Sequence record: PP759150
Reading direction: 5' to 3' (one strand)
Length of the DNA stretch: 44,661 nucleotides
DNA from: Escherichia phage HH3
Within the stretch, counting starts at the first letter, position 1. The number at the start of each line of letters is the position of its first letter. Below the pieces are notes generated by a model that saw only the letters and a list, made by a program, of their open reading frames with translations, was not told the DNA's origin and did no database searches. The translations under genes were made by a program, and so were the position numbers. Shown in pieces: positions 2,061 through 28,980 of the stretch.

Positions 2061-2351
2061 ATGGATAAGCTAAACGAGTGGCTATTCGCCCTGGCATGTC
2101 TGGCGGGTGGCTTCGTAGGCGCACGCATTCATGGCGATGCTACGAAGGGGCCGCTAAACTTCGTTTTGTATGTCGTAGTTGGCTTCCTGTGTGCCATATT
2201 TGGCGCACCGGCTATTGCCGAGTGGGCTGGTTTGTCGGGGGAGCGCACTGTCGCCGGTTTGGGCTTCGTAACCGCAATCTTCTGGATGCCAATCGCCGAC
2301 CGGATCAGGGAGACTATTGCGTCGTTCCGACTTCCGGGAGGTGCAAAATGA
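2061..2351 (+). CDS. holin-like membrane protein (96 aa)
   Basis: Two to three hydrophobic segments; immediately upstream of the endolysin; ATGA overlap with next gene. Confidence 0.6.
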   Translation: MDKLNEWLFALACLAGGFVGARIHGDATKGPLNFVLYVVVGFLCAIFGAPAIAEWAGLSGERTVAGLGFVTAIFWMPIADRIRETIASFRLPGGAK

Positions 2352-2593
2352 TTATCTCCGTCCTGTTGTTTGTTATCATCGGGGCTTCGTCCCTGTTTAA
2401 CGTGTATGCGCCGTCCGTCCAGGATGGCATTTTCGGTCGGGTGCTGTATCTGCTAACGGCAATGGTCTGTATTATCGGATTGTTGCAAACAGGAGACGTA
2501 TCTGATACCACCTGGACCGCGTTAATCTGGCTGTTTGCATTGCGCACCCTGCGTAATGCTGTTTTGAATGAGGTAAAACATGCGATTCAGTGA
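2348..2593 (+). CDS. small membrane protein, holin or antiholin partner (81 aa)
   Basis: Strong RBS gggagg; two hydrophobic segments; C-terminal part of track ORF 2078-2593, which I consider N-terminally over-extended. Confidence 0.5.
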   Translation: MIISVLLFVIIGASSLFNVYAPSVQDGIFGRVLYLLTAMVCIIGLLQTGDVSDTTWTALIWLFALRTLRNAVLNEVKHAIQ

Positions 2594-3071
2594 CAACGGT
2601 CTAAGATTCACGGCAGCATGGGAGGCTTTCAGCCCGGTGCCGTATTTCGCGACCAAGAAAGAGCAGGCCCGCGGCCTGTACACCTGGGGTTATGGTCATA
2701 CAGGCACTAATCCGCCTCGAAGCATTACCCGCGAGGAAGCGCTGGCACTGCTCAAGCGCGATGTGGCGTATGCCGAGGCTTGGGTGAACAAATACGCGCA
2801 TAAGAGCATTAACCAGGCGCAATTCGACGCGCTGGTGGACCTGGTAATCAACGCCGGTCCTGGCCCGATCGTACCGGATGACGTCGCCGGTGACTTCGAC
2901 GATGCTGTCCGCCTGGGTGACTGGGCAAAAGTCCGGGCTACACTGCCACAATTCCGCAAGCAAGGCGGGGAAGTGCTTAAGGGTCTGGTACGCCGTGCAA
3001 TCGGCAGACAGGCGTTATTTGATGGTAAGCAGTGGGACGTTGCCGAGCGAATCGGTCGTAACGCTGCATAA
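2580..3071 (+). CDS. endolysin, glycoside hydrolase family 24 (T4-lysozyme-like)
   Basis: Motif region ...KKEQARGLYTWGYGHTG... matches the GH24 lysozyme catalytic-region pattern; follows holin-like genes. Confidence 0.8.
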   Translation: MRFSDNGLRFTAAWEAFSPVPYFATKKEQARGLYTWGYGHTGTNPPRSITREEALALLKRDVAYAEAWVNKYAHKSINQAQFDALVDLVINAGPGPIVPDDVAGDFDDAVRLGDWAKVRATLPQFRKQGGEVLKGLVRRAIGRQALFDGKQWDVAERIGRNAA

Positions 3072-8407: not shown

Positions 8408-9494
8408 TCAATATATGGCGGATCGAATGATTCGCCGACACATCTTCACCCAGCGCCTGAGTAATGACCAGGCGCGAAGGGTGCTGTCCATGTGGGGGAA
8501 GTTCCGGCCTACATTACTGGGAAAGCTGACTGAGTTACTTGATGGCAAATCGTCAATGAATAACAAGGCACTTTCCACTCTGTTAACGCAAATCGACAAG
8601 ACTGTTAAAGCAGAATTGCGCACCGAGTTTAAGGCGTTGGCTGAAAGCCTTCAGGAGTTTGCCGACACCGAGGCCGATTATCTCGCCGACACATTAACGG
8701 CAGCGATCCAGCCGGTGGTCGCCGTACCTGCGGTCGAGGTGGTTGGCGTAGTGACCGGTGCGCAGATCGCAGCGACTGCGATGAAGAACCCGTTCCAGGG
8801 TAATACTATGATGCAATGGCCTGACTCACTTTCTGAGTGGACCAGGACGCAGATCGGTAATCAGGTGCGGGCGGGATTCATCCAGGGCAAGCCAACGATG
8901 GAAATTATAGCGGACGTGAGGCGCGCACTCGGCGGTCGTAGTGCGCAAGCTATCTCAAGCGTTGTTAAGTCCGCAGTCAACCACTATGCGGCGACAGCCC
9001 GCGAATTAATGGTGAAAGCTAATGACGATATTCTCGAAGGTCGCCAATGGTTATCTACATTGGACACGCATACTTCTCCCATGTGCCAGCTACGCGATCG
9101 CCTGTTTTATCCGGTTGATGTTACTCCCGACACCAAAGGAAAGCGCGGCGGGAAAATGGTGGCTGGGTCACAATATGGCGCTGGGCCGGGCAAGTTGCAT
9201 TATTGTTGCCGGTCTACGGAGACGTGGAAGGTTAAAGGCATGGAAGATTGGCCCAGTGGTAAGCGTCCGGCACTAAAGGCTGACGCGGGCAGATTGCTGA
9301 GTGAGCAGGTTGACGCGCAGACTGATTTCTTCTCATGGGTGCAGCGCCAGCCGCGCCATATCCTGGAAGAGTTATACGGAGTGCAACGCGCCGACCAGAT
9401 TATGCGCGGCGTGAAAGTGCCGAAGATGTTCACCGATTCCGGCGAACTAATGACTATCGCACAGCTTAAAAACCGGGGGTTATGGCGTGATTAA
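8391..9494 (+). CDS. head morphogenesis protein (Mu gpF / SPP1 gp7-like minor head protein)
   Basis: Follows portal; contains the GKLHYCCRS Cys motif typical of the Mu F-like domain. Confidence 0.65.
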   Translation: MAKTINQYMADRMIRRHIFTQRLSNDQARRVLSMWGKFRPTLLGKLTELLDGKSSMNNKALSTLLTQIDKTVKAELRTEFKALAESLQEFADTEADYLADTLTAAIQPVVAVPAVEVVGVVTGAQIAATAMKNPFQGNTMMQWPDSLSEWTRTQIGNQVRAGFIQGKPTMEIIADVRRALGGRSAQAISSVVKSAVNHYAATARELMVKANDDILEGRQWLSTLDTHTSPMCQLRDRLFYPVDVTPDTKGKRGGKMVAGSQYGAGPGKLHYCCRSTETWKVKGMEDWPSGKRPALKADAGRLLSEQVDAQTDFFSWVQRQPRHILEELYGVQRADQIMRGVKVPKMFTDSGELMTIAQLKNRGLWRD

Positions 9495-9816
9495 GTATGC
9501 GGCTATTGGGCTGGTTATAGGTCTGGCGGTAGGATTCTGGCTAGGTGACTCCTATCGCGCTGGCGTAGTGGCGGAGGCGGCGCAAGAAGCGCAAGCCGAA
9601 GCACAACGGCAGCAAACTAAAGTTGTTGAGCGCTCCGTGCAGGCAGAACAAGCCCGCGACGTGGAATACCGGACTATCACGAAAGAGGTTGTAAAATATG
9701 TTACGCGCCCTAACCGCCCTGATTGTAGTTTTGATGCTGAGCGCGTGCGGATCAAGCAACGTGCCGTTGATGCCGCTAACGGAGTCGGCACTGCGACCGC
9801 CGTGCAAGTTCGATAG
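9487..9816 (+). CDS. Rz-like i-spanin (109 aa)
   Basis: N-terminal transmembrane anchor IGLVIGLAVGFWLG followed by charged coiled-coil region. Confidence 0.6.
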   Translation: MIKYAAIGLVIGLAVGFWLGDSYRAGVVAEAAQEAQAEAQRQQTKVVERSVQAEQARDVEYRTITKEVVKYVTRPNRPDCSFDAERVRIKQRAVDAANGVGTATAVQVR

Positions 9817-9928
9817 CCCGTCCGCAGACCCCGACGAGGATTTGATGATTGACGTGAAAAATATGGAATGCGGGGCGAAGCTAAGGGCGCAGGTGCTGGA
9901 GTTGCAGCAAATAATTAAGGGGCCGTAA
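9698..9928 (+). CDS. Rz1-like o-spanin lipoprotein (76 aa), overlapping Rz in another frame
   Basis: Signal peptide with lipobox LSAC, Pro-rich mature part; out-of-frame overlap with Rz-like gene is the classic spanin arrangement. Confidence 0.6.
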   Translation: MLRALTALIVVLMLSACGSSNVPLMPLTESALRPPCKFDSPSADPDEDLMIDVKNMECGAKLRAQVLELQQIIKGP

Positions 9929-21881: not shown

Positions 21882-22486
21882 CCACCTTTAAATTATACGG
21901 CGTCTTAGGGCGTCGTTTTGGTAAAGTGCACAAGCTGGACTGCTTCACACCAGGCGAAGGCATCACCGGCCTGTGCGTGAAGTTACCAGGCTTACAGGAC
22001 TTTCTAATGTCGGCTCACCTGGAAAACATGATGTTCAAGGTGCGCAAGGGCAATCACACAATGACCGGTTACGACGAGTTGGGCGAGTTCCACGGTAACC
22101 GCGTAGTGACCATCGCGCCGGTTATGACTGGCGCAAAAAGAGGGCTAGGACAATTACTGGCGGGCGTAGCCATCGTGGTGGCATCATTCTACACTGGCGG
22201 GCTTGCTACTGCCGCTTTTGGTGCTTCAGCCGCGACCGCGGCTGCTATTGGTACGGCTACGTTTTCGTTCGGGATGTCGATGGCGCTGGGTGGCGTTATG
22301 CAATTGCTATCCCCGCAACCGAAAGGATTGCAGACACGGCAGGACGTGGACAACAAGGCGTCTTATGCGTTCGGCGGACCGGTAAACACGACCGCGCAAG
22401 GTACGGCACTTGGTGTATTATGGGGCGAGCGTGAGATCGGCGGCGCTATTATTTCCGCCGGAATCGTAACAGAGGATTTGAACTAA
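21872..22486 (+). CDS. tail assembly protein I-like (204 aa)
   Basis: Position before J; hydrophobic Gly/Ala-rich C-terminal half. Confidence 0.6.
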   Translation: MAMTTFKLYGVLGRRFGKVHKLDCFTPGEGITGLCVKLPGLQDFLMSAHLENMMFKVRKGNHTMTGYDELGEFHGNRVVTIAPVMTGAKRGLGQLLAGVAIVVASFYTGGLATAAFGASAATAAAIGTATFSFGMSMALGGVMQLLSPQPKGLQTRQDVDNKASYAFGGPVNTTAQGTALGVLWGEREIGGAIISAGIVTEDLN

Positions 22487-25400
22487 TGACGATTATCTAC
22501 GACGTCACGGGCCATAAAGGCGGCGGTGGTAAACAGCACACCCCGCAGGAAACTCCCGACAGCCTGCACTCGCAGGCTAAAGCCCGCATCTTGCTTGCAC
22601 TGGGTGAAGGTGAGTTCGAGGGGATCCCGAGCACCCGCGAATTACGGCAGCGCGTATATTTGGACGGAACGCCGATCCAGAACGCCGACCGGTCCGAAAA
22701 CTTCCCCGGCGCGCGCGTGGAGTTCCGCCCAGGCACACAGCATCAGGACGTGATTCACGGATTTTCCGCGGTGGAAAGCGAGCAAACAGTTGGTGTGAAA
22801 CTGGAATACGGCACGCCGTGGGTGCGCCAGATTAATGACACCAGTCTTGACGCCGTGCGCATTCGAATCGGTATTCCGGCTTTGTACACCAACAAAGACA
22901 ATGGCGACCTGGTGGGTGGGCGCATCGACTACAAAATTGTTGTGTACACCGACAACGCAAGTCCGCGCGAGTTCCGTTTCTCTGCCGTCGGCAAAACAAT
23001 GTCGCTGTACGAGCGAGACCACCGCATCGAGCTGCCATCGAACGTGAATACCGGCTGGCTCGTGGAGGTGCACCGCTTAACGGCAGATTCCACCTCTGCA
23101 AAAGTGGTTAACGATATCCGGGTACAATCCATTACAGAGATTATCGATGCCCGCCTGCGATATCCGCTAACCGCACTGTTGTTCGTGGAGTTCGACGCAA
23201 AGGCGTTCCAGAACATCCCGCGCGTATCCATTAAGTGCAAAGGACGAAAAGTTCTAATCCCGAACAACTACGACCCGATTAATCATACTTATTCTGGCGA
23301 CTGGGACGGGACGTTTAAACGCGCATGGACGGATAACCCGGCGTGGCACTGGTATGATATCTGTATTACGGAGCGCTTCGGCCTCGGTCGCCGGATAAAG
23401 CCGCAAATGCTAAACCGTTACGCGCTCTACCAGATTGCGCAGCGCTGCGATCAGATGGTAAGCGACGGAAACGGCGGACGGGAAATCCGCTTTAAGAATG
23501 ATATGTACATCCAGTCGCAGACCGACGCATGGACCGTGCTTAAGGATTTAGCAGCCATCTTTGCTGGTATGACCTGGTGGGGAAACCAGATGTTGAATAT
23601 CGTCAGTGACCAGCCGGTCGCAGCGGTATCGCACACTATCACCAACGCCTCGGTAATTGATGGGCGATTCGACTATGCGTCTGGCAGCCAGAAAACCCGG
23701 TATTCCACGTTCGCGGTAGCATACGGCAACCCGAAGAACCACTACGAGGACGCCATCGCAACGGGCCAGCGCGTCGAACTGGTGCGTCGCCATAAGATTA
23801 ACCGCCTCGATATTACGGCGATCGGCTGTACGCGTGAGTCTGAAGCGCAACGCCGTGGGCACTGGGCGCTAATCTCCAACCAACTCGACCAGCAAGTTAG
23901 CTTTAAGGTTGGCATGGAGGGACTTTTCTTTATTCCGGGTAGCGTAGTCGCTATCGCGGATACTAACATTTCCGGCGGCTTCGAGACCCGCGGCGGACGC
24001 CTGTTGTCAGATCCGGGCACGCGTACTGTGCTGAACACGGACAGCGAAATCACGTTCCGCCCTGGTGACAAATTCCTGGTGCGCACCGATAGCGGTAATG
24101 TGGAGACTCGCGAGATTGCCAGCGTCAACGGCAACAAGGTTATGCTGAAAAACGCACTGGATGCCGACCCGATTCCCGATCAACCGTTTTGCGTTGATGG
24201 CGATGATATCCAGTTGCAGAAGTTCCGCATCACCGACCTGGAATATGACGACGCTACCAGCACTTTCTCGGTGCGCGGGATTGAATACCACGACAGCAAA
24301 TATGATGCCGTTGATAATGGCGCGCGCCTTGATCCGGGCATCTTTACGCAAGTTCCCGACGGCGTAATTAAGGGGCCGGAATCCGTGACCATCACCCCGT
24401 CGCAGATCTCATCACAAGGCCAGCTAATCACCAACGTGGATATTGTTTTCCCTCCGGTGAAAGATGCCGTTGTGTACGAAATCCAGTGGCGGCGCACCAG
24501 CTTGCAGAATATGGAAATCCAGTGGGGTAACGACTGGGTGAATATCCCCCGCACGGCATCGAACGGCGCGCACATCCCTAACGTGTTCTCCGGCAACTAC
24601 CAGGCCCGCGTCCGCGCGATCGGTATGGGCGAGATTTCATCCCCGTGGGTGGAGTCTGCCATCACGCCGGTAGAAGGTCGTCTCGGCGGGCTTAACGCGC
24701 CTATCATCACCAACGCGATTTCTGGCCTCCACCAGATTTTGTGGAAGTGGAACCATAACAACGCCGCGACGGATATCTCTTACACCGAGCTTGAAGTGCG
24801 TAAGACCGGAGAGACGGAATGGAAATTTCTTACAAACGTCCCATACCCGGGGGCGGAGTATGCCCAAACGTCGCTGGAGTTCGGGATCTATCAGCAGTTG
24901 CGCGCCCGTGTAGCTGATAAAATCGGCAACCTGTCGGACTGGTCGGACCCGTTTGAAGGGCAGGTGAGTGACAAAGTTGACGAGTACATGAAGGGGCTTG
25001 ATGACGAGTTCTTGACTTCCGAGGATGGTAGACGCTTCCAGGAAGCGATCGACACCATGCCGCAGGGCATTTACGAGGCGATTCTCACCGACGCGCAGCA
25101 ATTATTTAACGCCCGCGCCGAGTACAAGGGTATTTATGCGGAAATCTCGGTGGCATATAACGTGGCGGCGGACGCCCACAAGGCTGTCGCTCAACTGGAG
25201 ACGTTGATCGGCACGCGACTCGACGATGCTGAAGCGGCGATCCACACGTTGCAGACGGCACAGAGTACGCAAGAACAAGCCTTCGCCCAGTATCAGCAAA
25301 CTGTTGCCGCTAAGTTCGCGGATCAGGAAGCTGCCATCCAGCAGGTACAAACGGCAACGGCGGACGTAGCTGGCGCGCTGGCGGAGTACAAAACCCAGGT

Positions 25401-26304
25401 CGCGGCACAGTTCGGTCAGCAGTCCGCCGCTATTGAGCAGAAGATGACGTCCTCGTTTAACCATGCGGGTGGTAACGCCACGTACAGCCTTAAGGCGGGC
25501 GTGACGTATAACGGGACCTACTATGACGCCGGTATGCAGCTTTCCGTCGTGGCGGAGGGTGGCGCGGTTAAATCCCGCATCGCGTTCAAAGCGGACCAGT
25601 TCTACATCATGCACCCGTCTAATGGGACGCTTTCGTCCGCGTTTATCGTGGATGGCGGGCAGGTGTATATCGACACGGCGCGCATTAAAGACGCATCTAT
25701 CAACTTTGCGCAGATCACGGACACGCTGCGGTCTGATGGCTTCTTAACAGGGTCACGCGGCTGGAACCTGCCTAAATCGGGTAATGCGGAGTTTAACAAC
25801 GCGACAGTCCGCGGCACCGTTTACGCGAGTGATGGTGTGTTTAAGGGCACGGTTTATGCAAGGGATGGGGTATTTACCGGAACGGTCGAAGCCACCAGCT
25901 TTGTCGGTGACGTTGCAAATATGTGTGTTATTGGTGCGAAAGCAATCCCAAACACAGACAGGAATGGGTCAAGGTCATGGTCGGTGACTTTCAACGACTC
26001 GTCCAGGTCATCGAAACTCAAAGACTTTGTGTTGCTGTTAAGTTACTCACTGGTCGGGCACACCGCAAGCCAGTCAAGTCGCATTGCTGTTACCGCCAAT
26101 ATTGGCGGTAAAGTAGTATCAAGGACTATTGAGCGAGCGGCAAGCGGAAACGCAATCCATACAACGATTCCTTTAGCTGCGGAAGGTGTAGCGGCGGGAA
26201 GTGTAACAATTAAAGTGACGGAAGTGTATACAAACGTCTACGGCAGCACATTGCACCCATCTGTAATATTAATGACTCGTGGAACTGGTAGCTGGTCGCA
26301 ATAA
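22486..26304 (+). CDS. host specificity / central tail fiber protein, lambda J-like (1272 aa)
   Basis: N-terminal GHKGGGGKQHTP and internal YSGDWDGTFKRAWTDNPAWHWYD...RCDQMVSDGNGGRE segments closely resemble lambda gpJ as I recall it. Confidence 0.9.
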   Translation: MTIIYDVTGHKGGGGKQHTPQETPDSLHSQAKARILLALGEGEFEGIPSTRELRQRVYLDGTPIQNADRSENFPGARVEFRPGTQHQDVIHGFSAVESEQTVGVKLEYGTPWVRQINDTSLDAVRIRIGIPALYTNKDNGDLVGGRIDYKIVVYTDNASPREFRFSAVGKTMSLYERDHRIELPSNVNTGWLVEVHRLTADSTSAKVVNDIRVQSITEIIDARLRYPLTALLFVEFDAKAFQNIPRVSIKCKGRKVLIPNNYDPINHTYSGDWDGTFKRAWTDNPAWHWYDICITERFGLGRRIKPQMLNRYALYQIAQRCDQMVSDGNGGREIRFKNDMYIQSQTDAWTVLKDLAAIFAGMTWWGNQMLNIVSDQPVAAVSHTITNASVIDGRFDYASGSQKTRYSTFAVAYGNPKNHYEDAIATGQRVELVRRHKINRLDITAIGCTRESEAQRRGHWALISNQLDQQVSFKVGMEGLFFIPGSVVAIADTNISGGFETRGGRLLSDPGTRTVLNTDSEITFRPGDKFLVRTDSGNVETREIASVNGNKVMLKNALDADPIPDQPFCVDGDDIQLQKFRITDLEYDDATSTFSVRGIEYHDSKYDAVDNGARLDPGIFTQVPDGVIKGPESVTITPSQISSQGQLITNVDIVFPPVKDAVVYEIQWRRTSLQNMEIQWGNDWVNIPRTASNGAHIPNVFSGNYQARVRAIGMGEISSPWVESAITPVEGRLGGLNAPIITNAISGLHQILWKWNHNNAATDISYTELEVRKTGETEWKFLTNVPYPGAEYAQTSLEFGIYQQLRARVADKIGNLSDWSDPFEGQVSDKVDEYMKGLDDEFLTSEDGRRFQEAIDTMPQGIYEAILTDAQQLFNARAEYKGIYAEISVAYNVAADAHKAVAQLETLIGTRLDDAEAAIHTLQTAQSTQEQAFAQYQQTVAAKFADQEAAIQQVQTATADVAGALAEYKTQVAAQFGQQSAAIEQKMTSSFNHAGGNATYSLKAGVTYNGTYYDAGMQLSVVAEGGAVKSRIAFKADQFYIMHPSNGTLSSAFIVDGGQVYIDTARIKDASINFAQITDTLRSDGFLTGSRGWNLPKSGNAEFNNATVRGTVYASDGVFKGTVYARDGVFTGTVEATSFVGDVANMCVIGAKAIPNTDRNGSRSWSVTFNDSSRSSKLKDFVLLLSYSLVGHTASQSSRIAVTANIGGKVVSRTIERAASGNAIHTTIPLAAEGVAAGSVTIKVTEVYTNVYGSTLHPSVILMTRGTGSWSQ

Positions 26305-26310
26305 ACAATT

Positions 26311-26337
26311 AGCCCCTCATTCGAGGGGCTATCTTTT
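26311..26337. terminator. bidirectional rho-independent terminator
   Basis: agcccctc-attc-gaggggct followed by ATCTTTT. Confidence 0.65.
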
Positions 26338-26578
26338 AATAATCAATGACGCAGTTTGATGGGGAACCAATCCTGCGGTGTTCGTGGCTAATCTCCTGGC
26401 ACCACTGACCGGTATATGGTAGCTTTTCGGTATCGTAAACCAAAGACCCGTCTTCATGTCGCTCAATAGGATGAGGTATTACACCCGAATTTGGAACGCC
26501 TGTGTTTAAGCCATTGCCACATGCTGTCATTAGAAGGCACGCCGCGGGTATTATCAGATTTTTGATTAAAGTTTTCAT
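26336..26578 (-). CDS. small lipoprotein (80 aa), candidate receptor-blocking superinfection exclusion protein
   Basis: Strong RBS ggagatga; signal peptide MKTLIKNLIIPAACLLMTAC with lipobox Cys; encoded antisense between J-like gene and tail fiber gene. Confidence 0.55.
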   Translation of the reverse strand: MKTLIKNLIIPAACLLMTACGNGLNTGVPNSGVIPHPIERHEDGSLVYDTEKLPYTGQWCQEISHEHRRIGSPSNCVIDY

Positions 26579-26658
26579 GGTATCATCTCCTGTATTGGGT
26601 TGAGTTTTAGTATTACACCGCTCAACCAAGAATGCAACCAATTTAAGAGGATTCAGCT

Positions 26659-28980
26659 ATGGCAGCGGGTACGCTCTCCGTAACGAACAATAGCAAGGCG
26701 GTAGTAGGGGTTGGCACAACGTTTACCGCGTTCAAGGCTGGCGACTTTCTGTCGCTGGTAGTGGGGCAAGCCCCTTACACAATCGCAATTTCATCCATTG
26801 AAAGCGACACTGCGCTAACGCTGGTGCTGCCGTTCGACGGCCCAACGGCAACGGGACTCGCCTGGGACGGCATCAAACGTGACACCATGTCACTGGCAAC
26901 GATGGGCGTAACCGTACAGGCACAGAAAGCATTGCGCTTGATGATTGCAGATGAAAACAACTGGCGTGCAATCTTCGGCGACGCTGAAGAAATCACAGTC
27001 ACACTCCCGAACGGGCAGGTTATGCAGGGCATGTCATGGGGCTATCTGTCGCAGTTGATGAAGGAAATCGACCCCGTTGAGATGCGCAACCTGCAACAAC
27101 AAGCCGCTGCGGCGGAGGCTGCCGCGCAGGGGTTTTGCAATGAGGCCGAAGGCTTCAAAAACGACACCAATACCATCAAGACGCAGACCGACCAGATTAA
27201 GACTGATACGCAGGCCATCAAAGACCAGACGAACCAGATTAAGACTGACACCGGCGTTATGAGGGACGAGGCCAACACCGCGAAGACGGACGCGCAAGCT
27301 GCCAGCGCCGCCGCGCAGGGCTTCCGCGATCAGGCCGAAGAATTGGCGCAAAGCATAAACCCAGATAACCTGCTAACCAAATCCGGCAACCTGGCAGGAC
27401 TCACCGACAAACCGCAAACCTGGCTTAACGTTCGCCCGGACGGGGCGACGCCACTGGCGGGCGACCCAGTAGGTGACTACGACGCCGCGACAAAGCGTTG
27501 GGTAGAGAACCTGATTAACACAGGTACTGTCGGGCCTACTATGAACGGCGTGATGAACTACGGTGTAGGTCAGGTTACGCTGTGGCATTCTCGCGCGTTC
27601 ATTCCGTCTTACGCAGTTGTTGCAGACGGCCAGTTGTTGTCACGTACAGCTTACCCTGAACTGTGGGCACATGCTCAGATGCACAACCCTATCAACGACA
27701 GCGTATGGTTAACGGGTAGCGGCAATCGCGCTAAATTCTCAACAGGTGACGGTAGTACCACGTTCCGTGTACCGGACCTCAACGGTGTTCAAGCTGGGTC
27801 GCCGGCGAATCTTTTCGGGCGCGGGTCCAACGGGTCCAGTAATTTGCTACCCGGTACAACCTTGGAAAGTGCGTTACCTGATATCGCAGGTGAAAGCCCT
27901 TCGACTCTGATTCGTTACGTCGACGCAGCTTCTGCGGCGTTTCGGACTACGGAGGTAAGTACTTACGGTTACGGCTCGGATACAAACAACGCGCCTATCA
28001 AGTGGAAGCAGCTGAGCTTCCGGGCCTCACGGTCATCTCCTGTTTACGGTCGCTACAATACGACCGAGGTTGTACCGAACTCTTTCGTCGGCGTATGGAT
28101 TATCCGCGCATCTGGCGGCTTCGTGGCGGCAAATACGTCGTGGTCGGTAATTAACGGTGACGCGTCTCGTCCGGCAGACGGGACGACAGCTGATGGCGGT
28201 CGCGTAATTTCGAAGTACCAGGTTAACGGAGTTGATGAAGCTATCACATCTCTTCAAGTGATGGCCCAAATTGGCGGTAAATATTATACCAGGTTGGCCG
28301 TTGAAAATGCCACGTCAAGTAATGTTGCTTGGTATGATTTTAATGAGGATGGCGGATTTTCGGCTGGCTCAATAAACTCTGCTGATAAAGTAACAGCAAA
28401 TGGACCGTTTTACTCAAGGGGTAATGGATACCCAAGCATTTGCTTTTTGTCTGATAGATACAACAATCCAAACACAAACATAGGCGCGATCACAGTCTTG
28501 GAATGCACAGGCACTGATGGAAACGTATCAACCGTCAACTTAATCAGAAGGCGGGGGGATGGAAGTCATACAGGGCAGGTGACTGTGAAATTCCCGACTA
28601 CAACAGGAACATTAGCACTGCAAGGAACATCGGGCCGCGAGTATAAGAAAGACATTGCCGATGCGGACGCAAGCGAAGCTATGGACCGCATTAACAGCCA
28701 GCGCCTTGTTAACTTCGTGTATAAGGATGATGCGCAAGCCCGCCAGCGCTTCGGTATTATCGCCGAGGAAGCGGAGTTAATTGCGCCGCAGTACGTTAAG
28801 CACCACGAGTTCCCGATCGAGGATATTCTCGACGAAGACGGCAACAAGATCGGGGAGAAAATGACGGACCGCCCATCCATCGACGTTAACCCTATCGTCA
28901 TGGATTTGATGGGATGTGTTCAATATCTCAATAAGCAGGTGGAGGATTTGAAGGCCGAGATCGCGGCGTTGAAGAAATAA
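26659..28980 (+). CDS. tail fiber protein with C-terminal intramolecular chaperone (peptidase S74-like) domain, 773 aa
   Basis: RBS aagagg; C-terminal ~150 aa resemble self-cleaving chaperone domains of endosialidase / L-shaped tail fibers; Thr/Gln-rich repeats at 27140-27300. Confidence 0.7.
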   Translation: MAAGTLSVTNNSKAVVGVGTTFTAFKAGDFLSLVVGQAPYTIAISSIESDTALTLVLPFDGPTATGLAWDGIKRDTMSLATMGVTVQAQKALRLMIADENNWRAIFGDAEEITVTLPNGQVMQGMSWGYLSQLMKEIDPVEMRNLQQQAAAAEAAAQGFCNEAEGFKNDTNTIKTQTDQIKTDTQAIKDQTNQIKTDTGVMRDEANTAKTDAQAASAAAQGFRDQAEELAQSINPDNLLTKSGNLAGLTDKPQTWLNVRPDGATPLAGDPVGDYDAATKRWVENLINTGTVGPTMNGVMNYGVGQVTLWHSRAFIPSYAVVADGQLLSRTAYPELWAHAQMHNPINDSVWLTGSGNRAKFSTGDGSTTFRVPDLNGVQAGSPANLFGRGSNGSSNLLPGTTLESALPDIAGESPSTLIRYVDAASAAFRTTEVSTYGYGSDTNNAPIKWKQLSFRASRSSPVYGRYNTTEVVPNSFVGVWIIRASGGFVAANTSWSVINGDASRPADGTTADGGRVISKYQVNGVDEAITSLQVMAQIGGKYYTRLAVENATSSNVAWYDFNEDGGFSAGSINSADKVTANGPFYSRGNGYPSICFLSDRYNNPNTNIGAITVLECTGTDGNVSTVNLIRRRGDGSHTGQVTVKFPTTTGTLALQGTSGREYKKDIADADASEAMDRINSQRLVNFVYKDDAQARQRFGIIAEEAELIAPQYVKHHEFPIEDILDEDGNKIGEKMTDRPSIDVNPIVMDLMGCVQYLNKQVEDLKAEIAALKK

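Follow-up and report, generated by a model that had tools for sequence, protein, structure and literature searches.

A small antisense lipoprotein gene next to the receptor-binding end of J in Escherichia phage HH3 as the probable exclusion half of a LamB-linked host-recognition cassette

The window analyzed here is a 44,661-nucleotide stretch of DNA from Escherichia phage HH3 (PP759150), a member of the genus Dhillonvirus. Between a J-like gene and the lateral tail fiber gene it carries a short ORF that converges with the former across a 31-bp gap and diverges from the latter (Table 1). A sequence-only reading of the window had described this ORF as antisense to both of its neighbors, preceded by a strong ribosome-binding site and bracketed by terminators. 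The orientation and the ribosome-binding site were borne out, whereas the bracket stood on one side only. On the 3′ side, a single bidirectional intrinsic terminator (9-bp stem with 6 GC pairs, 4-nt loop and T-rich tails on both strands; ΔG of -17.4 and -17.6 kcal/mol on the two strands) serves both converging genes, and ARNold terminators are annotated at the equivalent position between J and the lipoprotein gene in the mEp phages. On the 5′ side, a search of the 80-bp intergenic region (26579-26658) found no second terminator. This region contains a candidate sigma-70 promoter with a -35 hexamer TTGCAT (26637-26632), a 17-nt spacer, an extended -10 TG (26617-26616) and a -10 hexamer AATACT (26614-26609). 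The candidate agrees with the consensus at 7 of 12 positions plus the TG and was not listed by the consensus scanner because it falls below the 9/12 threshold. Both hexamers and the TG are kept in four Dhillonviruses, cor-type phages among them, and we regard the element as a putative promoter of the ORF. The same intergenic region holds an imperfect inverted repeat (GGTTGAG-N16-CTCAACC) overlapping the spacer and -10 of the candidate promoter; its significance is doubtful because the right arm is not kept in Envy. An upstream TTG start at 26641, which would extend the product to 101 aa, was dropped because alignments of the homologs begin at the ATG and the TTG is upstream of the conserved candidate promoter. 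The neighboring lateral tail fiber gene is a mosaic. In comparison with Dhillonviruses that are otherwise ~90% identical, two of its segments (27152-27306 and 27800-28590) lack nucleotide homology, and conservation is seen at the 5′ end and at the 3′ end, where the S74 chaperone domain lies. Elsewhere in the window, the lysis module is split, with an Rz-like spanin pair (9487-9925) among the head genes, ~6.4 kb from the holin/endolysin genes (2061-3068).

Table 1. Features at and around the lipoprotein locus of HH3 (positions in the 44,661-nt window)
Feature	Position	Strand	Remarks
J-like central tail fiber / tail tip gene	22486..26304	+	1272 aa; Pfam domains
Exchangeable host-recognition cassette	25734..26564	.	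bounded by nucleotide homology breaks
Bidirectional intrinsic terminator	26310..26331	.	common to the converging J and lipoprotein genes
Prolipoprotein CDS	26336..26578	-	ATG 26578 to TAA 26336; 243 nt; 80 aa
Stop codon of the lipoprotein gene	26338-26336	-	
Predicted mature protein, 61 aa	26521-26339	-	
Lipobox Cys20	26521-26519	-	PROSITE PS00013 pattern
Predicted signal peptide	26578-26522	-	aa 1-19 of the ORF
Shine-Dalgarno AGGAG	26587..26591	-	8 nt before the ATG; kept at the Maverick, Envy and Bas15 loci
Candidate sigma-70 promoter	26609..26637	-	read by eye from the alignment
Lateral tail fiber gene	26659..28980	+	773 aa; Pfam Peptidase_S74 chaperone domain and Collar domain

The ORF has the features of a small prolipoprotein. 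Its translation begins MKTLIKNLIIPAACLLMTAC|GNG...; the full protein is MKTLIKNLIIPAACLLMTACGNGLNTGVPNSGVIPHPIERHEDGSLVYDTEKLPYTGQWCQEISHEHRRIGSPSNCVIDY. The signal peptide carries K2 and K6 in its n-region, then a hydrophobic core, then the lipobox IPAACLLMTAC. The earlier call of a lipoprotein-type signal peptide with a lipobox cysteine agrees with the pattern test, as PROSITE PS00013 is satisfied with the cysteine at position 20, a residue invariant in all 25 aligned sequences. The strict lipobox [LVI][ASTVI][GAS]C fails in HH3 (M at -3); the LTAC or LTGC of most homologs passes it. At position +2, HH3 has Gly and the homologs all have Gly, Ala or Ser, never Asp. Under the Lol-avoidance rule, a +2 residue other than Asp leads to outer-membrane sorting, which predicts that the HH3 protein, once lipidated as its signal peptide would have it, is localized to the outer membrane. 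The mature protein (~6.8 kDa, pI 5.3) starts with ~10 residues that form a flexible tether, continues as a conserved core, and has two further cysteines, C60 and C76, which are conserved and probably form a disulfide. AlphaFold modeled the protein with low confidence (pLDDT 62 for the full-length and 58 for the mature form), and a Foldseek comparison of these models with the PDB returned nothing below E=5.

For the conserved core of the lipoprotein we obtained dN/dS values of 0.08 (versus Maverick) and 0.06 (versus Bas21). In the comparison with mEp010, synonymous sites are saturated, yet the mature core has stayed ~70% identical. The gene is therefore more than a chance ORF. Furthermore, residues 7-80 match PHROG 12984 (‘lipoprotein’) with E=3.5e-41. 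Lpp010 (mEp010 gp116) and the AS5 protein match this PHROG too, and by sequence the ORF belongs to this Lpp010 / PHROG 12984 / ‘type-C Lpp’ family. Homologs were found by tblastn in 43 phage records, and a search of 5.8 billion proteins yielded 17 homolog clusters at 90% identity, the best being a 100% match to the protein annotated in HH3. Across the 17 clusters, 25 columns are invariant (including the lipobox Cys, PNSGV, GQW and C76). Among 1.84 billion cluster representatives, profile searching recovered three real members and two spurious tandem-repeat proteins, and found no remote relatives. Searches of Pfam, NCBIfam and PADLOC gave no meaningful match, the sole NCBIfam line being a sub-threshold LptM match over the signal peptide. 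The gene is annotated as ‘hypothetical protein’ in HH3, Maverick, CS16 and most Queuovirinae records. In EP23 (NC_016566, 21711-21950) and PNS1 (MK138527, 9759-9998) it is present without annotation.

In every phage lineage examined, the lipoprotein gene lies directly after a J-like gene and converges on it. We found this layout in Dhillonvirus (Maverick), in Queuovirinae / Seuratvirus (GottfriedDienst), in the temperate mEpimmI phages mEp010, mEp013, mEp044 and mEp554, in a Drexlerviridae phage of Enterobacter, in a Salmonella prophage and in a lambdoid prophage of E. coli Nissle 1917. At 28 of 31 IMG/VR loci, a long ORF converges on the gene across 28-34 bp and ends, like HH3 J, in RG[ST]GS[FW]. 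Two near-identical IMG/VR contigs carry a copy away from any J gene (L043, 3020-3235; L044, 3607-3822), among small ORFs ~3 kb upstream of terminase genes in the manner of a free-standing moron. Some metagenomic or prophage copies have the appearance of decaying genes. Arg takes the place of the second conserved cysteine in two (L040 and L041) and of the first in another (P0016), and a frameshift truncates the C-terminal half of two more (L042 and P0018), which suggests occasional loss of function.

Nucleotide alignments within the genus show how the gene travels. Homology between HH3 and the FhuA-type Dhillonviruses Envy and PaulFeyerabend (= Bas15) runs at 89-91%, breaks off at 25729-25733 and is picked up again at 26565; these points therefore delimit an exchangeable unit (Table 1). 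In HH3, the unit contains the last ~190 codons of J (its receptor-binding end), the terminator and the lipoprotein gene minus its first ~5 codons. The corresponding interval of Envy and PaulFeyerabend contains the short end of a 1139-aa J, then two small receptor-binding protein genes on the plus strand, then an antisense 72-aa gene annotated cor. The 80-bp intergenic region, the candidate promoter, the ribosome-binding site and the first five codons (MKTLI) are common to HH3 and its cor-type sisters; past codon five, the lipoprotein and cor sequences diverge completely. Thus, the C-terminal receptor-binding domain of J and the lipoprotein are swapped as a cassette.

The identity of the receptor, left open in the sequence-only reading, can be approached through phages whose receptors are on record. 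Receptors of the Bas phages were taken from the BASEL supplementary table. The lipoprotein family is absent from phages with LptD (Bas14, Bas18, Bas19, Bas20 and Bas25) or FhuA (Bas15, Bas16 and Bas17) as receptor and present in those with LamB (Bas21, Bas22, Bas23 and Bas24). The mEp set gives the same distribution, with the family in the LamB-dependent mEp010, mEp013, mEp044 and mEp554 and not in the OmpA-dependent mEp021 and mEp515. Overall, it occurs in 8 of 8 LamB phages versus 0 of 10 LptD, FhuA or OmpA phages, the phages compared not being phylogenetically independent. Additional evidence comes from J itself. Over its C-terminal 133 aa, HH3 J shares 66-70% identity with J of the LamB-dependent Bas21, Bas23 and Bas24, and all 31 phage records with an HH3-type J C-terminus also carry the lipoprotein. 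We presume from these identities that residues ~1118-1272 of HH3 J, beyond the Pfam Phage_Tail_Tip domain, are a LamB-binding domain. Lambda J aligns with HH3 J only to ~residue 1015 of lambda, before lambda’s LamB-binding domain, and within the lambda receptor-binding domain we found no sequence match. A literature search found no measured receptor for HH3, EP23, PNS1 or 9g. On the co-occurrence in the BASEL and mEp sets and the identity of the J C-termini, LamB is most likely the receptor of HH3.

One member of the family has been studied experimentally. Negrete-Mendez et al. (2025; PMC11893012) cloned mEp010 gp116 as Lpp010, a ‘type-C lipoprotein’. Our alignment recovers exactly the substitutions described in that paper (K2G in mEp013, A11S in mEp044, Q38H and V40I in mEp554); therefore, the protein tested is the homolog found here. 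The HH3 ORF is 54% identical to Lpp010 overall and ~70% in the mature core, and the two share the invariant core PNSGVIP...DTEKLP.TGQWC...GSPSNC. Both genes converge on J with a shared terminator, and Lpp010 is tied to LamB-dependent phages. They differ in that the carrier of Lpp010 is temperate and unrelated to Dhillonvirus, its N-terminal tether is 3 residues longer and of other sequence, and its J partner is much longer (1504-1828 aa in the Lpp010 phages versus 1272 in HH3). In spot assays, which score plaque formation only, plasmid-expressed Lpp010 excluded the LamB-dependent phages mEp010, mEp044 and mEp554 and, unexpectedly, lambda too; mEp010, mEp044 and mEp554 also fail on a lamB knockout (Negrete-Mendez et al., 2025; PMC11893012). 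Phage mEp013 is LamB-dependent yet escapes, and the authors left both a receptor block and a block of DNA ejection possible (PMC11893012).

Such a function is in keeping with published statements on loci of this kind, which generically encode receptor-binding proteins and cognate exclusion factors (Maffei et al., 2021; 2025 BASEL paper, PMC11990801). For Bas23, which targets LamB, Van den Berg et al. (2022; PMC9586334) considered a superinfection-exclusion lipoprotein ‘likely’; the homolog in this phage shares 73% identity with the HH3 ORF. The exclusion phenotype of Lpp010 against LamB phages and the presence of cor in the same slot of sister phages support the earlier proposal of a superinfection-exclusion lipoprotein encoded beside the receptor-binding genes. 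As to the structure or binding of a LamB-directed lipoprotein, the mEp paper (PMC11893012) was the only literature found. The exclusion family has been described recently, and the remaining novelty is the structural mechanism on LamB.

Two exclusion lipoproteins of solved mechanism provide a basis for comparison. The first is Llp of T5, with a mature part of ~60 aa and one disulfide, whose gene adjoins that of the receptor-binding protein and whose product disables the phage’s own receptor (PMC9586334). Llp has no sequence similarity to the HH3 lipoprotein in Pfam and PDB profile searches; by analogy, the Llp/FhuA pair is the best-understood model for the mechanism proposed below. The second is Rtp45 of phage Rtp, which together with SE(Oeko) of the Dhillonvirus Oekolampad represents the same type of locus, downstream of gpJ in small siphophages (PMC12685063). 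Rtp45 is a ~6 kDa periplasmic lipoprotein with a disulfide, and the cryo-EM structure of LptDE-Rtp45 (PDB 9RPS) shows a receptor that is not a TonB-dependent transporter being blocked from the periplasmic side through a shift of its extracellular loops (PMC12685063). It differs from the HH3 protein in sequence family, in its target (LptD) and in being encoded with a separate receptor-binding protein gene. A PDB sequence profile search with the HH3 ORF gave only noise at the level of the signal peptide; Rtp45 (9rps_D) was among the lines, with E=1.4 over profile positions 1-24.

Together, the evidence makes it probable that the HH3 lipoprotein is the exclusion half, and the J C-terminus the receptor-binding half, of a two-part host-recognition cassette, the lipoprotein rendering LamB unusable. 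The small prolipoprotein would be made in the infected cell from its own promoter. The J-like protein most likely attaches to the maltoporin LamB through its C-terminal domain. The lipoprotein, in turn, would bind LamB from the periplasm and change the surface loops that the receptor-binding domains need, making the porin unusable for HH3 and other LamB-dependent phages and blocking superinfection. For a virulent phage, the benefit may be that fewer progeny are lost on LamB-bearing debris. Both the direct targeting of LamB and the way in which it would be blocked are inferred. Lpp010 excludes phages with unrelated receptor-binding domains (lambda and the mEp phages), so its target should be the receptor or a shared entry step. 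Further, mEp013 depends on LamB and still escapes Lpp010, which implies that LamB stays in place and usable; this escape agrees less well with the porin being removed than with a local change in its conformation. After the examples of Llp on FhuA and Rtp45 on LptDE, we favor periplasmic binding with surface-loop displacement as the most likely mode of action.

The analogy has a structural difficulty. Llp acts via the allostery of the plug and loops of a TonB-dependent transporter. The trimeric porin LamB has no plug, and no allostery is known for it (PMC9586334). The Llp mechanism is, for this reason, not simply transferable, and Van den Berg et al. (2022; PMC9586334) have asked how a lipoprotein could block a porin without allostery. 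We entertain, more tentatively, the idea that the family disables LamB by a mechanism unlike those of Llp/FhuA and Rtp45/LptDE and effective across unrelated receptor-binding domains. Possibilities include insertion into or capping of the channel from the periplasm, or a state in which phage binding is allowed and DNA ejection is blocked.

The main rival explanation keeps the family and its exclusion function and leaves adsorption intact, placing the block at a later step such as irreversible binding, formation of a channel through outer membrane and periplasm, or DNA ejection. Besides the lack of a known allosteric route from the periplasmic face of LamB to the surface, it draws on the mEp study, whose plaque counts accommodate both options, and on E. 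coli Nissle 1917. Lambda is reported to bind Nissle LamB without infecting, and the authors inferred an unidentified factor blocking DNA entry (PMC5987069). The Nissle genome (NZ_CP148105.1, 2214452-2214685; L045, 5890-6123) encodes a 77-aa homolog, 74% identical to the HH3 ORF, that converges on the 1308-aa J-like gene of a lambdoid prophage. The lipoprotein is not mentioned in the Nissle lambda-resistance study (PMC5987069). If expressed, the Nissle copy would argue for a block after adsorption; the strain has other barriers, however, including a repressor and a capsule. Also against a late block, a virulent phage gains most if its progeny are kept off debris, which needs a true binding block (PMC11990801), and the solved analogs Llp and Rtp45 both abolish attachment of the receptor-binding protein (PMC9586334, PMC12685063). 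The escape of mEp013 is likewise easier to explain at the interface between receptor-binding domain and receptor. On balance we consider a post-adsorption block unlikely and retain interference with binding to LamB as the preferred reading.

Far less probable is that the HH3 protein is a divergent member of the Cor or Llp families that blocks FhuA or another TonB-dependent transporter. The sequence-only reading had likened it to Cor and Llp, and the likeness holds for the locus and the type of protein but not for sequence kinship. Cor (T1, phi80, N15 and HK022) is likewise a small outer-membrane lipoprotein and exclusion factor. In Envy and Bas15 it occupies exactly the HH3 slot, antisense after the receptor-binding genes and with the same MKTLI start; it shares the 5′ end and regulatory region with the HH3 gene and has, like the HH3 ORF, two cysteines in the mature part. 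Yet the mature parts have no detectable sequence relationship, as BLASTP against Envy Cor finds similarity only in the signal peptide and the first residues past the lipobox cysteine. NCBIfam NF047972 (57.4 bits for Envy Cor, cut-off 31) and PHROG 1119 both match Envy Cor, and neither matches the HH3 ORF. Similarly, the PDB search gave no sequence match to Llp, and the line for Rtp45 was confined to the signal peptide. The biological context also differs: Cor is associated with FhuA and accompanied by two separate small genes for receptor-binding proteins, whereas HH3 has its receptor-binding domain fused to J. Moreover, no tested FhuA phage has a member of the HH3 lipoprotein family, and every tested LamB phage has one. 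A Cor/Llp-family identity is already largely refuted. What the HH3 protein has in common with Cor, Llp and Rtp45 is its locus, size, lipoprotein nature, probable disulfide and, in a tested homolog, exclusion; by these comparisons it is an analog of all three that stands outside their sequence families.

Equally improbable is a role in lysis, as an Rz1-type o-spanin, or that of a Bor- or Lom-like envelope protein serving as a host-fitness moron, for a gene that came to lie after J by chance: o-spanins and Bor are small outer-membrane lipoproteins too, lambda carries the moron lom directly after J and the two IMG/VR contigs have stand-alone copies, but an o-spanin role is unlikely because HH3 has its Rz-like and holin/endolysin genes elsewhere, the ORF sits between J and the tail fiber gene rather than in or adjoining an i-spanin gene of a lysis module, Pfam finds no Bor or spanin match, the gene is swapped jointly with the receptor-binding end of J, its homolog Lpp010 has a demonstrated exclusion phenotype (PMC11893012), and serum-resistance morons make little sense in a virulent genus.

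The identification of an exclusion lipoprotein linked to LamB has several implications for the biology of these phages. It assigns a function to a gene that is ‘hypothetical’ or unannotated in several reference genomes, and leads to the testable prediction that HH3, EP23, PNS1 and Maverick-type Dhillonviruses use LamB as receptor. It also joins explicitly three literatures: the Lpp010 exclusion assay, the BASEL receptor map and the Llp and Rtp45 structures. At least four phage lineages share one LamB-linked lipoprotein family that moves between them as a cassette, and its ~6.8 kDa periplasmic lipoprotein acting against LamB would be a natural system in which to address the question raised by Van den Berg et al. 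(2022). The reach of the family extends to lysogens. A homolog is present in ~50 of 5,426 complete E. coli genomes (about 1%), Nissle 1917 included, and such prophage copies matter when LamB-dependent phages for cocktails or lambda-based tools are chosen for use on wild strains. If the family does act on LamB in a way unlike Llp and Rtp45, these copies could explain why lysogens resist lambda-like phages beyond mere immunity.
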